The notes below the pieces were generated by a model. That model was not told the DNA's origin and did not search any database. It was given only the letters and a program-made list of their open reading frames with translations. A stretch of DNA of 48,755 nt from Octopus sinensis (Eukaryota): contig NW_021834399.1 in NCBI RefSeq assembly GCF_006345805.1, positions 1-48,755 on the forward strand, written 5' to 3'. A program made the translations under genes and the position numbers. Numbering within the stretch: the stretch's first letter is position 1; each line of letters begins with the position of its first letter. Positions 2,060 to 44,344 of this stretch are shown here, one piece after another.

Positions 2060-2616
2060 AGGTCACAAAAGTGATAGAGGGTACTGTCTAGCACCGCTTT
2101 CGCTAGAGAAAGGAGTTAAAGTAACTCAAAGGCTACAAAATCACTGTCTTAATACTTTTGAGTTATTTTAACTCTTACCTTTAACAAGAGCTGTACTAGT
2201 CAGTGCCTGTGTCACTTTTGTGAACGCTATTAATTTGGCTTTAGGTTCTAATTGCTAATAAGCCACCCTTTTAATTTGTTGTTTGCGCTTTTAGCGTTTT
2301 GAAAATCAGCACACGTTTGCAACGGTTTTTTCTTATAAGAGTGATAGAAGTAGCTGAGTTTAACCCAAGGCGTTAAGAGCCGCTGATGAGAATTAAGATG
2401 ATCTACATCAAAGTCCGAAATTGCGATCCGGTTATGTACGCTGGGGACTTACCTTCCTTTGTCAGTCATTAAGACAATGATTTTGTGGCATTTGAGTTAT
2501 TTTAACTTCTATCTTTAGGAAAAAATGGTGCTAGTCGAGTACCCTCCATCACTTTTGTGACCTCTATTAATTTTGCCTTTAGGTTCTAATTGCTAATAAG
2601 CCACCGTTTTTAATTT
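2060..2616 (+). mobile_element. Non-coding PLE/retrozyme-like unit: inverted repeat, tandem direct repeat and hammerhead
   Basis: 2060-2153 is the reverse complement of 2468-2563. 2157-2277 is a direct repeat of 2491-2616. The HHR is at 2378-2433 and the unit is flanked by (GA)n and (CA)n. Confidence 0.75.
2378..2433 (+). ncRNA. Type I hammerhead ribozyme
   Basis: agccg-CTGATGA-gaatt..gatg/catc..aagtcc-GAAA-ttgcga-TC|cggtt. Stem I is agccg/cggtt, stem III is the near-palindrome attgcgat, the cleavage triplet is AUC, and stem II has one mismatch. Confidence 0.7.
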
Positions 2617-2639
2617 ATTACACACACACACAAATGCAT

Positions 2640-3030
2640 GTATATGCAAAACTACTCGAGTTTTCAAAATTCTTATAAGAGAGTTTCACATCCGAACGAT
2701 AAATATCGCGAACTGATAAATAAGCTAAATAAGCAAAACGTGATAACATCGTATTGCACAACAAGCATTTACAGACACCCAAGCCATGCACTACTAACTG
2801 CAATTATAACATCTCTTCATATTGCCCTCCGAAACAGAGCTGTTCCTTTTAGTAATATGTGTGCAATAATAGCTATCAACACCACAGCATCAAATGCGAC
2901 CATATATATTGGGTTAACCCATACACATATTTTGCAATACAAACTGGGTGAATGATACTTCACTTTCTAAACACAGATCGTCATTATAGTCCAAAAATCA
3001 TTCCATATTGCATTAATTGGAAAATATTAA
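2640..3030 (+). mobile_element. Penelope-like element fragment (linker and GIY-YIG), highly degenerate
   Basis: ORF 2638-2955 contains 'HPNDKYRELINKLNKQNVITSYC' and 'TIYIGLT'. A downstream frame gives 'YCINWKIL', resembling the PLE endonuclease C-terminus. Confidence 0.45.
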
Positions 3031-3524
3031 CTTATGTTTATCCATATCAGGCAAACAACAAATCTGGCACACTCCGTGTCGATGAATCTGATCAAATTAC
3101 CTTTTCTAAAAGGTAATTCCTTCTTTCTTTCATTCTCTCTTTCTCTGTCTTTGATATAAATACATATACACACATAGATATATAAATTTGTGGATATATA
3201 CCCATAATAAAGCACAACATCGATGCATGCATATATACATACATATGCAAATACTTATAAATATATGAGCATTCATATACATGCATATATAGCCAGATGC
3301 ATTCATACATATTCATACCCACCCTCACTTCTTTACACGTCTATCGCAAACAGAGATATATACATACGCCCATACATCTATGGATATATACATGCACACA
3401 CAGACACAATTGAAGGCGAACATCATTGAGCTTATATCCGTATTGACATACAAATGCGGACATAACTATACACTCTTACATATGCGTTATTTACATATAT
3501 TTATCCTGGGTTAAAAACTGTATC

Positions 3525-3652
3525 TGGTGGTGAGGCTTCAGTTCAGGAGTTGTGCGGAGAGTGGGATCATCCATTTATTACCATTACTCTCAAGTCTGTT
3601 CTGACCCGGAACGGTAAATGCCAAGAGCCCATCTATAGGCTAAATTGATTTC
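3525..3652 (+). repeat. Short interspersed repeat fragment (Octopus-type), unclassified
   Basis: 'tggtgaggcttcagttcaggag...ccattactc...ctgacccgga...cccatctatagg' recognised from recall only. It is a single copy in this window. Confidence 0.35.
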
Positions 3653-3689
3653 CTATGGATAGAGGAGGCTACAGTTATTTTTGACAAAA

Positions 3690-41705: not shown

Positions 41706-41714
41706 ATCTTCTAT

Positions 41715-42063
41715 TTCTTTTACTTGTTTCAGTCATTAGACTGCGATCATGCAGGATCACAGCCTTCAAAATTTTTAGTCAAACGAATCGACCCCAACAT
41801 TTTCTGGTACTTAATCTATCGTTATTTTTTGAGCCGAACCACTAAGTTATGGAGACGTAAACTCACCAACACTGGTTGCAAAATGGTGGAACAGGGGACA
41901 AACACAGACAAAAAAACACACAAACACACATGTGCATATACGCGACAAGCTTCTTCCAGTTTCCGTCTTCCAAATCTACTCCTAAGGGTTTGGTGGCCCG
42001 AGGCTATAGTAGAAGGCATTTGCCCAACGTACTAACCAGTGGGACTGAACCTGGAATCCTGTG
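41715..42063 (-). mobile_element. SINE family B, head-truncated
   Basis: 'tttacttgtttcagtcattagactgcg', 'gccgaaccactaagtta', 'cccgaggctatagtagaag', 'cagtgggactgaacc'. Confidence 0.85.
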
Positions 42064-42242
42064 ATAGCAAACGTCTAAACAAAAACAACGACGACCACCA
42101 TCACTACCACTTCCACTACTACTACTACTACTACTACTACTAACTACTACACATTATATACATACATATATATTTACGTAGATGCGTACATATATACATA
42201 CATGTGTATGTATGTATGTATGTATGTATGTATGCATACATA

Positions 42243-43510
42243 ATGGTTTGGCAAGAAAGTAATTTCCTTTTTCGCAAATAAAGTTGCGATTCTTTTGAAT
42301 GACTTTTGTCAATGTCATGATTTCTTTCCTTTTGACATTTGATAGCCGTTACTTTTAACTTATTTTAGAAGCAAATTACGTGTAATTTTGTTTACAGTTG
42401 TTCGTTCAGTGTTAATTTTAACATGTAATACAAAAACGAACATTTTCGCCATATTTTGCTGTTTTATTTCCGTTAAAGGCAATAAAGTTGCTAAGCTCAA
42501 AAGGAGATATGTTAAGTTTATGATGTTGACTGCTTAACAGAGCGCACATGTCAGAAATGGTTTTAAAAATTCCGTTCTTCAGATTTTTTACTCAAAGACG
42601 ATCAACGTTCTGGTCGACCTACTGAAGTTGATGATGACCGAATAAAAATCCTAAATGAATCTGATTGTCATAAAACTGTGCAAGAGATTGCAGAGAGGTT
42701 AAATGTATCACACACAACAACTGAAAATCATTTAAAATGTCTCGGACTCATTAAAAAGCTTGATATTTAAGTTCCACATAAATTGAAAGAGATTACACTT
42801 AATAAAACGAATCAATATTTGCGATATGCATGTCAAACGCAATGAAATCGACCTAGTTTTGAAACGAACAATGGATTGTTTACAATAACATCAATCGCAA
42901 ATGATCATAGTCCAAGCGTATTGAACCAGCACAAATCATATCGAAAGCAGAATTGCATAAAAAAGGTCATGCTGTCGATTTGGTGGGATTACAAACGTGT
43001 TCTGTATTTAGTAACCGTCCTTGTCCGAGCTGCTTCCAAGAAACTAAACGATCAATTCAGATGTTTGCTGTCAACAACTAATGAAACTGGAGGAAACAAT
43101 CAAAGGCAAACGGCCAGAATTGGCAAATCGTAAAGGAATCGCTAAACAACACACGTCTTTGCTAACTTGTGAAAAATTATTGGAGCTTGGTTGAGAAGTA
43201 ATGTCACATCCACCATATAGCCCCACCATTGCACCATCAGATTATCATTTATTTCGAAGTTTGCAAAATTCTTTGAATGGTAAAACTTTCAATAATGATG
43301 ATGACCTGAAATTGCACTTGCATCAATCTTTGGCTAATAAGGATCAGAAGTTCTATGATCCCGGATTCATGAAGTTGCCAGAAAGGTGGTAAAAGATCAT
43401 CGAACAAAATGGAAAATATATAATTGATTAAAGTTCATTTTTTGTATGAAAAAAAAAAACAACTTTTATTCACACTAAAAAAGAACGAAATTACTTTCTT
43501 GCCGAGTCAA
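42243..43510 (+). mobile_element. Full-length mariner transposon (about 1.27 kb, cecropia/Hsmar1-like), inactive
   Basis: TIR core ggcaagaaagtaatttc at both ends in inverted orientation, with TA on each side and a transposase remnant inside. Confidence 0.93.
42423..43431 (+). pseudogene. Mariner transposase pseudogene
   Basis: 'EHFRHILLFYF', 'LTERTCQKWF*KFRS', 'DDQRSGRPTEVDDD', '*VPHKL' (WVPHEL), 'KKVMLSIWWD', 'HPPYSPTIAPSDYHLFRSLQNSLNGK', 'KLPERW*KIIEQNGKYI'. Confidence 0.93.
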
Positions 43511-43752
43511 TAAATAAATAAATAAATAAATAAATAAATAAATATATAAATATATATATATATAAATATATATATATATATGTGTGTGTGTGTGTGTTGT
43601 GTGTGTGTGTGTGTGTGCGTGTGCGTGCGTGTGTGTATATATATAATTTAAATAATGAGGGAGATAAATTGAATATTAATTTAATTAATATCAAGTTAAA
43701 ACCAGTAGCCTAGCATATAAAAATCTGAAAAATCAGAGAAAATTCCAATACA

Positions 43753-44344
43753 TGTGTATATTTAGGGCTAAAAACCACTATGTGGACAGCCATATGTTAG
43801 AAGTAGATCACATACGATTAAACTACAAAGAAAGAATGTTCTCCAGAGAAAATCCAGCGGACACCAGAACATAGGCGGGCAAGACAGATGAAAATGACAT
43901 AAAAATCAAGAATTAATCGTATACCGGTTTCGTCTATCACCGAATAAATTACTTACGTAATCCTTCGTCCGTAGATTCATCAGTCCTCCAGAACTCAGAA
44001 CTCAGACATTTGAAATTAAGCCCAATATAATAAGTAGAACTAAGCATGTGTCTGGTTTTATACAGAAAACTGGTGGTTAGTTTTACAAATTATATTGCTT
44101 TTGGAAAGATCGTACTGATGAATCTACGGACGAAGGATTGCGTAAGTAGTTTATTCGGTGATAGACGAAACCGGTATACGATTAATTCTTGATTTTTATA
44201 TAATTTTCACCTGTCTTGCCCGCCTATGTTCTGGTGTCCGCTGGATTTTCTCTGGAGAACATTCTTTCTTTGCAGTTTAATCGTATGTGATCTACTTCTA
44301 GCATATGGCTGTTCACATAATGGTTTTTAGCCTAAATATACACA
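43753..44344. mobile_element. Fold-back element: about 231-bp inverted arms (about 96% identical), 129-bp spacer, containing a hammerhead ribozyme
   Basis: 43753-43984 versus the reverse complement of 44114-44344 shows about 9 substitutions and 1 indel by manual alignment. TA/TG microsatellites lie nearby on both sides. Confidence 0.93.
44108..44183 (+). ncRNA. Type I hammerhead ribozyme with extended stem II
   Basis: gatcgta-CTGATGA-atcta-cggacgaa-gg-attgc-gtaa-gtagt-ttattcg-gtga-tagac-GAAAC-CG-GT-A|tacgatt. Stem I is 7 bp, stem III is the palindrome ACCGGT and the triplet is GUA. The first stem II pair is an A-C mismatch. Confidence 0.8.

Follow-up and report, generated by a model that had tools for sequence, protein, structure and literature searches.

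The first 48,755 nucleotides of contig NW_021834399.1 from Octopus sinensis (assembly GCF_006345805.1; the whole stretch is referred to as the window) contain three compact inverted repeats, units 1 to 3, each with a type I hammerhead ribozyme (HHR) and a dinucleotide microsatellite at its edge. A preliminary description, made from the sequence alone, saw in them a retrozyme-like system, a community of non-autonomous ribozyme elements that depend on Penelope-like elements (PLEs), insert at microsatellites and acquire a 5′ inversion on integration. The locus raises the question of whether this shared plan represents a new kind of element, a known one, or a coincidence in repeat-rich DNA. We consider it probable, with good confidence, that the units are 5′-truncated insertions of three different PLE families, each consisting of an HHR-bearing 3′ end and a shorter inverted copy of it. 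The pattern is real, well above chance, and most likely the known insertion footprint of PLEs rather than a new system, because every feature of the shared plan has been published for PLEs and a PLE locus that still bears its open reading frame (ORF) has the same plan.

Self-alignment of the window recovered units 1 to 3; with simple repeats set aside, no other close inverted repeats in it are as long. They measure 420-580 bp and together occupy ~3% of the window. Their arms, with gap columns excluded from the calculation, are 88.5% identical in unit 1 (2060-2156 vs. 2464-2563), 89.9% in unit 2 (21676-21784 vs. 21999-22107) and 96.1% in unit 3 (43753-43984 vs. 44114-44344). In all three, a longer copy contains the HHR and a shorter, truncated inverted copy lies at its 5′ side, with both 3′ ends facing outward. 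The units are unrelated to one another, as first described: the pairwise similarity scores were reached by 28, 92, and 7 of 100 shuffles. Their non-coding nature was likewise borne out, no significant PLE protein match being found inside any of the three.

Descriptor scans of both strands found one type I HHR motif in each unit (Table 1), and these hold ranks 2, 3, and 1 (units 1, 2, and 3) in both scans. The final scan returned four motifs scoring at least 7, against a shuffle mean of 0.175 and with none of 40 shuffles reaching four, so that HHR motifs in the window exceed their frequency in shuffled sequence. An earlier scan returned four at threshold 6 (shuffle mean 0.57, maximum 3) and separated more poorly at threshold 5 (four observed, shuffle maximum 7). 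The descriptor was custom-built and adjusted once after the motif of a Neptune-like PLE in the window was known, and its figures serve as a guide only. The claim of one complete HHR fold per unit was upheld in that a type I motif is present in each, and needs correcting in that the motif of unit 2 is decayed, helix II is weak in unit 1, and unit 3 has an A.C mismatch at the base of helix II. Unconstrained minimum-free-energy folds gave the hammerhead in none of the three unit motifs, the fold z-scores of the whole units are unremarkable (+0.32, −1.83, and −0.33), and no hammerhead family is among the 150 of 210 Rfam matches listed, in which microsatellites match miRNA and similar models. About six further HHR-like cores had been described; one of them, in the Neptune-like PLE, passes the descriptor, while the others are decayed remnants or belong to the second arm of unit 3. 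The single decayed HHR copies in the window are probably inert.

The setting invites a reading by coincidence, in which HHR-like motifs, microsatellites, and fold-backs from post-insertion repair simply co-occur. The animal DNA of the window is rich in AT, a tandem-repeat search gave 79 rows, microsatellites dominate the output of a general repeat search, and the protein match of closest identity to one of its frames is an Octopus bimaculoides sequence, 69% identical over 43% of the query. It holds 123 dinucleotide arrays, 21% of non-array positions lie within 100 bp of one (1.7% within 5 bp), and further short inverted repeats without an HHR are present. However, the best three HHR motifs fall within the three longest close inverted repeats, the observed motif count was reached by 0 of 40 shuffles, which refutes chance for the motifs, and polarity is identical in all three units; we regard coincidence as extremely improbable. 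[quoted passage not shown] The dinucleotide flanks initially reported thus hold for all long-copy 3′ ends but not for every end.

The points at which the inverted copies stop differ with respect to the HHR: 31 nt after it in unit 1, within helix II in unit 2, and 1 nt before the core in unit 3. HHR cleavage was considered as the setter of the inversion point and rejected, because no arm has its start at the cleavage site. L1 inversion has a complementary two-piece arrangement. Here the arms overlap in the sequence copied, so that the 3′ end is duplicated in inverted orientation and the event differs from the 5′ inversion of L1. The proposed inversion at integration survives in modified form: the breakpoints are locus-specific in the family of unit 3, but the product is a duplicated 3′ end.

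This family is high-copy and provides the most detailed view of such insertions. The unit 3 stretch is partly present in at least 20 sequencing runs (9 studies, four organism labels), none of which contains half its words. Contigs of four runs were aligned on 43890-44345 at 80% likeness; three of these runs are likely DNA, none of the surveyed runs is on record as RNA, and one (X13), merely guessed to be RNA, was not used as expression evidence. Summed depth in the three runs that are likely DNA reaches 77,016, 107,278, and 84,948 at positions 44290-44305 and 17,077, 20,970, and 10,480 at 44082-44097, a 4.5- to 8-fold fall from the 3′ end to just upstream of the HHR, while the listed joints and most listed pieces have a depth of ~20-68. 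This profile points to hundreds to thousands of 3′-biased copies, although depth in contigs cannot be equated with copy number. Behind 44328 and 44332, loose ends enter TA and CA repeats, and such copies ending in (TA)n or (CA)n support the earlier proposal of PLE machinery and microsatellite targeting. Family pieces start at 43996 with loose letters before it, and one 207-nt contig adds 82 nt upstream; because the family reaches upstream of 43996, the window copy is 5′-truncated and the letters at 43985-43995 are probably filler. Truncation at the 5′ end varies among copies, and three other arm-to-copy joints were found, at 43937 to 43996 (21 letters between), 43969 to 44065, and 43978 to 44164. 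All three have single-locus depth, and two of them occur in runs of two organism labels.

A different explanation of units 2 and 3 would be that they are derivatives of DNA transposons, similar to miniature inverted-repeat transposable elements (MITEs), that inserted at TA with long terminal inverted repeats and a passenger HHR. Long terminal inverted arms, TA at both ends, and a mariner-type transposase piece at 42846-43130 speak for it. Against this, contigs of the unit 3 family continue upstream past the spacer into other sequence and have other breakpoints, their depth is biased toward the 3′ end as described above, and their variant letters preserve the pairing of the HHR helices. A fixed palindrome is not found in the family, and the variable arm lengths largely refute the transposon reading for unit 3; for the two units together we hold it very improbable.

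The variant letters fall in the helices of the unit 3 HHR, whose helix II is built of three segments over a 45-nt span. Four of eight improve helix II pairs (the basal A.C becomes G-C, and three further pairs are repaired or strengthened), one makes a pair weaker, and another is located in an internal loop. The remaining two amount to a replacement of T-A by C-G in helix I, with similar depths on both sides and unconfirmed linkage phase. Because these letters keep the helices paired, the hammerhead fold was likely under constraint in the family. The inverted arm of unit 3 contains a second HHR core without helix I, and the two arms agree at 44160, 44238, 44244, and 44279, each time unlike the near-fixed family letter, which fits one template for both arms or later conversion between them. 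Loose letters upstream in the family weakly resemble the residues after the C-x-H motif of Hydra-clade PLEs, a hint that would place the motif ~155 nt ahead of the core, against a comparator median of 159. An ORF end read by eye inside the unit 3 spacer was rejected, having scored below background. Unit 3 is tentatively assigned as a Hydra-clade 3′ end.

Comparators were drawn from 80 Hydra-like loci on metagenome contigs, 50 of them with the C-terminal motif and 40 with at least 200 bp after it. In 21 of these 40, a type I HHR lies 106-435 nt past the C-x-H motif of the ORF, and its helix II spans 10-27 nt. Among 30 self-aligned loci, an inverted copy was found in L080, and one of 180 bp in a single other locus (L048). 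L080 (946-2245) is an ORF-bearing Hydra-like PLE with an HHR and a 424-bp inverted truncated copy, 96% identical, that contains a second HHR; it has the plan of unit 3 with the coding sequence still joined.

The same features have been published for PLEs. Partial tandems, a 5′-truncated inverted copy at the 5′ end, a one-sided tail, microsatellite bias, and hammerheads in the pseudo-long terminal repeats (pLTRs) are described by Craig 2021 (PMC8557442), where an octopus Hydra family at (TA)n is also on record and formation of the inverted end is called an open mechanistic question; the supplement lists Penelope-13_HM with a 5′-truncated inverted copy and an HHR on both strands. As presented in that paper, endonuclease-bearing (EN+) PLEs of the Hydra clade resemble the units in their type I HHR near the 3′ end, (TA)n targets, and 5′ truncation, and Hydra-like ORF fossils share the window with the units. 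The units differ in having no attached ORF, in a sequence unlike that of Hydra-1_Obim when compared by eye, and, for units 2 and 3, in a much longer helix II than in the Hydra HHRs listed there. Schistosoma mansoni minimal HHRs, mostly single motifs, include opposite-strand dual HHRs ~100-700 bp apart that have been ascribed to truncated PLEs (PMC4209133); dual motifs and a short palindromic helix III are points of likeness, whereas helix II has 7-8 bp in those given there and is multi-segment in units 2 and 3. The retrozyme-like community of the preliminary view accordingly found no support as a new system, its plan being published for PLEs and L080 bearing an ORF.

In the mechanism we propose, a PLE protein with reverse transcriptase (RT) and GIY-YIG domains would nick both strands in or beside a (TA)n or (CA)n tract, and each nick would prime reverse transcription from near the 3′ end of the element RNA. 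The two converging cDNAs would stop early at variable points and be joined at their truncated 5′ ends, giving an inverted repeat with its 3′ ends outward; in unit 1, one additional truncated tandem copy would have been added and the tail kept on one side only. The hammerhead would travel with the 3′ region and would not fix the junction. This scheme draws on the anatomy of the units and on a published in vitro study of another PLE; cDNA priming at two nicks and joining are our extrapolation. In that study, a protein from a different PLE clade cleaves and extends each of the two strands, two internal RT start sites account for the tail, and hammerhead cleavage is dispensable in vitro (Frangieh 2024, PMC11167929).

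Several observations weigh against assigning the units to PLEs. None of the three is physically linked to an ORF, and their spacers score below background in the PLE profile search (18.4, 15.2, and 16.1 vs. a control maximum of ~24). No unit matched the 80 Hydra-like loci by blastn, and comparison by eye with the 3′ ends of Hydra-1_Obim, Naiad_Obim, and Naiad_Ovul showed no likeness. Helix II spans 77 nt in unit 2 and 45 nt in unit 3, compared with 10-27 nt in the 21 comparator PLE hammerheads. The family-level data come from unit 3 alone, with 258 loose ends and 1,689 pieces lying outside the matches listed for it. The resemblance of the upstream letters to Hydra is matched or exceeded by 123 of 6,961 background windows. 

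Exact-pattern scans for unit 1 and unit 2 motifs in viral contigs and for a unit 3 motif in metagenome contigs gave no match, nor did a scan for three motifs in the supplement of Craig 2021, which is weak owing to line breaks and divergence. The units are probably truncated members of PLE families that are uncatalogued or mislabelled.

Unit 1 is the most elaborate of the three. Besides its inverted arm, it contains a direct 5′-truncated copy that went unmentioned in the preliminary description, and the HHR sits between the two direct copies. Because the inverted arm is without the last 56 bp, the tail is present on one side only. The partial tandem and one-sided tail occur in unit 1 alone and are absent from units 2 and 3, where they are optional. 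This order of parts is that of Penelope insertions in Adineta vaga, in which two direct pLTRs are accompanied by an adjacent shorter inverted pLTR and an optional tail at one end (Arkhipova 2013, PMC3846280); the paper also records solo pLTRs and pLTRs separated by non-coding sequence. Unlike the insertions described in that paper, unit 1 has 210 bp with the HHR in place of the ORF between the direct copies and a tail of 56 bp rather than 31 bp, and a target-site duplication is not readable in it.

The direct repeat admits another interpretation, namely that unit 1 at least is a complete non-autonomous PLE derivative, a non-LTR retrozyme with a 334-nt monomer and one HHR, in which 1.4 rounds of a circular or multimeric RNA were copied by a PLE protein in trans and the usual inverted end was added. 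Animal non-LTR retrozymes are non-coding, with monomers of ~170-400 bp. The 334-bp period of the direct repeat and the position of the HHR between the copies agree with this, as do the ~300-bp monomers, type I HHR, and low GC content given for animal retrozymes (PMC7229834). A tandem partner reportedly goes with full-length copies of PLEs (PMC8969392), and animal retrozymes have been proposed to be non-autonomous, PLE-dependent pLTR derivatives in a preprint whose sampling includes no mollusc (Li 2026, bioRxiv 10.64898/2026.07.22.740005). However, retrozymes as described in these sources are tandem repeats with an HHR per unit and circular RNA, whereas the window units have one whole HHR each, form no array, and are known from DNA alone; with its single HHR, unit 1 falls short of the head-to-tail tandem of two type I HHR-bearing units by which the preprint recognizes retrozymes (bioRxiv 2026.07.22.740005). 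The 97 nt before its HHR are compatible with the 33-315 nt that separate stop and core in comparator PLEs, so that simple truncation fits too. In 70 columns of a three-way alignment, the upstream copy has 10 private differences and the other copies 5 and 5, which hints at another template, and circular folding of the monomer yields a stability no greater than that of shuffled sequence (z +0.32). Among the contigs of the unit 3 family, moreover, 3′ ends run into microsatellites, copies continue upstream, and no head-to-tail joint is among the joints listed, which counts against the retrozyme-like system as first described. We regard the retrozyme interpretation of unit 1 as quite unlikely; of the three, unit 1 alone could be such a non-autonomous monomer by its sequence, the 334-bp period being a modest lead. 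If true, it would tie retrozyme mobilisation directly to two-strand insertion by PLEs.

With all three units assigned to truncated PLEs, a second modest lead is the length of helix II in units 2 and 3. In unit 2, the helix II region of 77 nt is closed by 7 bp. The core search of PMC8557442, as described there, used a spacer of 7-17 nt and flagged cases of 35-50 nt as half-cores; Naiad_Ovul carries the flag HHR_half_core. In the sequences of its supplement, a 6-bp stem that encloses ~23 nt stands directly before a GAAA box in the 3′ ends of Naiad_Obim and Naiad_Ovul; this may be a remnant of a long-helix-II hammerhead. A 13-nt likeness seen by eye between unit 2 (21730-21750, −) and these octopus Naiad 3′ ends was left uncounted, as about half of it is forced by the motif. 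A combined reading holds both that unit 1 is a dispersed 334-nt non-autonomous retrozyme caught in more-than-unit copying with a PLE-type inverted end, and that cephalopod PLEs with a long, multi-segment helix II (45-77 nt) are missed by short-spacer descriptors; we give it tentatively, as rather unlikely. A long helix II would, if true, explain some PLEs scored as half-core or ribozyme-less, and long-helix-II hammerheads kept paired by variants would widen the HHR descriptors used for PLEs. Otherwise, the value of these observations lies mostly in annotation, as PLE 3′ ends such as these can pass for MITEs, and in the many natural inversion junctions that the unit 3 family offers for the study of inverted-end formation.

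Five PLE ORF fossils had been reported in the window. Four are firm or fair (313-669, 3768-4770, 14523-15433, and 32105-32578), and the fifth (~2750-3110) is weak. Profiles were built from 150 protein hits of the 331-714 frame and from 10 of 11 hits of the 32102 frame; the 331-714 frame had no match in a word-index protein search and was matched in a full HMMER search. The CxCx5C linker is present in 57 of the 150 protein hits and in 56 of the 80 comparator loci, and its presence in these hits is the reason why the first three fossils are likened to the Hydra clade, for which this linker and CxxC/CxH motifs in the ORF are given as characteristic (PMC8557442). An initial label of Nematis was replaced by Hydra after comparison with the clade motifs. 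A C-terminal profile peak at 34785 (31.7 vs. a control of 24.3) was unconfirmed by hidden Markov model (HMM) or tblastn and was set aside. The fossil at 32105-32578 is presumably Neptune-like, a label that we take from its motifs. The element to which it belongs has no inverted copy that we could find at 32105-33650. Three 3′ ends of one Neptune-like group (1083-1273, 30160-30360, and 33445-33650) each end at (TA)n or (AC)n; a whole minimal hammerhead is present only in the copy at 33.5 kb, and no inverted copies of these ends were found.

Table 1 Coordinates of the units, PLE remains, and HHR motifs in the window
Feature	Position	Strand	Remarks
PLE ORF fossil, Hydra-clade-like	313-669	−	70 bits; reversed control maximum 3.1
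Decayed HHR remnants	~1160-1185, 30245-30270		by alignment
Unit 1, inverted 5′-truncated copy of 2464-2563	2060-2156	−	left side adjoins (GA)n tract
Unit 1, direct 5′-truncated copy of 2491-2619	2157-2280	+	pLTR-like partial tandem, 85.5%, period 334 bp
Unit 1, long copy with HHR	2281-2619	+	3′ end adjoins (CA)7
Unit 1, type I HHR	2378-2433	+	core boxes intact, helix II weak (27-nt span), helix III 2 bp
Possible fifth PLE ORF fossil, weak, Hydra-like C-terminus	2748-3110	+	6.9 bits; 32.5 vs. control maximum 24.3
PLE ORF fossil, Hydra-clade-like	3768-4770	+	in broken pieces
PLE ORF fossil, Hydra-clade-like	14523-15433	+	C-terminal C-x-H motif
Unit 2, long copy	21681-21998	−	3′ end adjoins (TA)8, left side
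Unit 2, decayed type I HHR	21729-21835	−	CCGAUGA core, mismatch at helix I base
Unit 2, inverted 5′-truncated copy	21999-22102	+	begins within helix II, 89.9%
Decayed HHR remnants	24700-24760, 25484		by eye
5′-truncated Neptune-like PLE	32105-33650	+	GIY-YIG piece 32105-32578, pyrimidine-rich 3′ region, ends at (TA)n
Minimal HHR variant of Neptune-like PLE	33516-33553	+	CUGUUGA core
Unit 3, inverted 5′-truncated copy	43761-43984	−	both core boxes, stops 1 nt before core, without helix I 5′ strand
Unit 3, junction letters	43985-43995		absent from family contigs; probable filler
Unit 3, long 5′-truncated copy	43996-44336	+	from a high-copy family; 3′ end continues into (CA)n/(TA)n
Unit 3, type I HHR	44108-44183	+	core boxes intact, helix I 7 bp, helix III ACCGGU

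Other repeats are spread through the window. An inverted repeat at 33848-33999, with 51-bp arms (47 matches), a 51-bp spacer, and its right end at (TA)n, has no hammerhead and is a miniature of the outward-facing plan of the units. Two older inverted repeats (27463-27702 and 39887-40644) have arms of ~70 bp that are ~80% identical, the latter surrounding a long (TA)n array. Two copies of a further repeat (24700-24880 and 25484-25590; 59 bp at 97%) both finish at (TA)n and show hammerhead-like boxes by eye; they are probably one more PLE 3′ end.

Remains of other transposons are also present. A broken reverse-transcriptase region of a long interspersed nuclear element (LINE) at 12087-13510 (−) has a YADD motif, is without a Pfam match, and is presumably RTE-like by its motifs. 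Broken LINE pieces on both strands at 15850-17764, which we take to be R4/Dong-like, contain a 78-bp direct repeat and a weak zf-RVT match (16754-17098, E 0.0008). The mariner-type fragment mentioned above lies on the + strand and matches Pfam Transposase_1 (E 1.5e-05). Two dispersed, microsatellite-associated families of short repeats with 67-84% identity are probably short interspersed nuclear elements (SINEs), one set at 20284-20694, 26894-27396, 34068-34551, 41707-42063, and 47967-48441, and the other at 3924-4135, 6595-6691, 16023-16255, 17915-18121, and 19937-20115.

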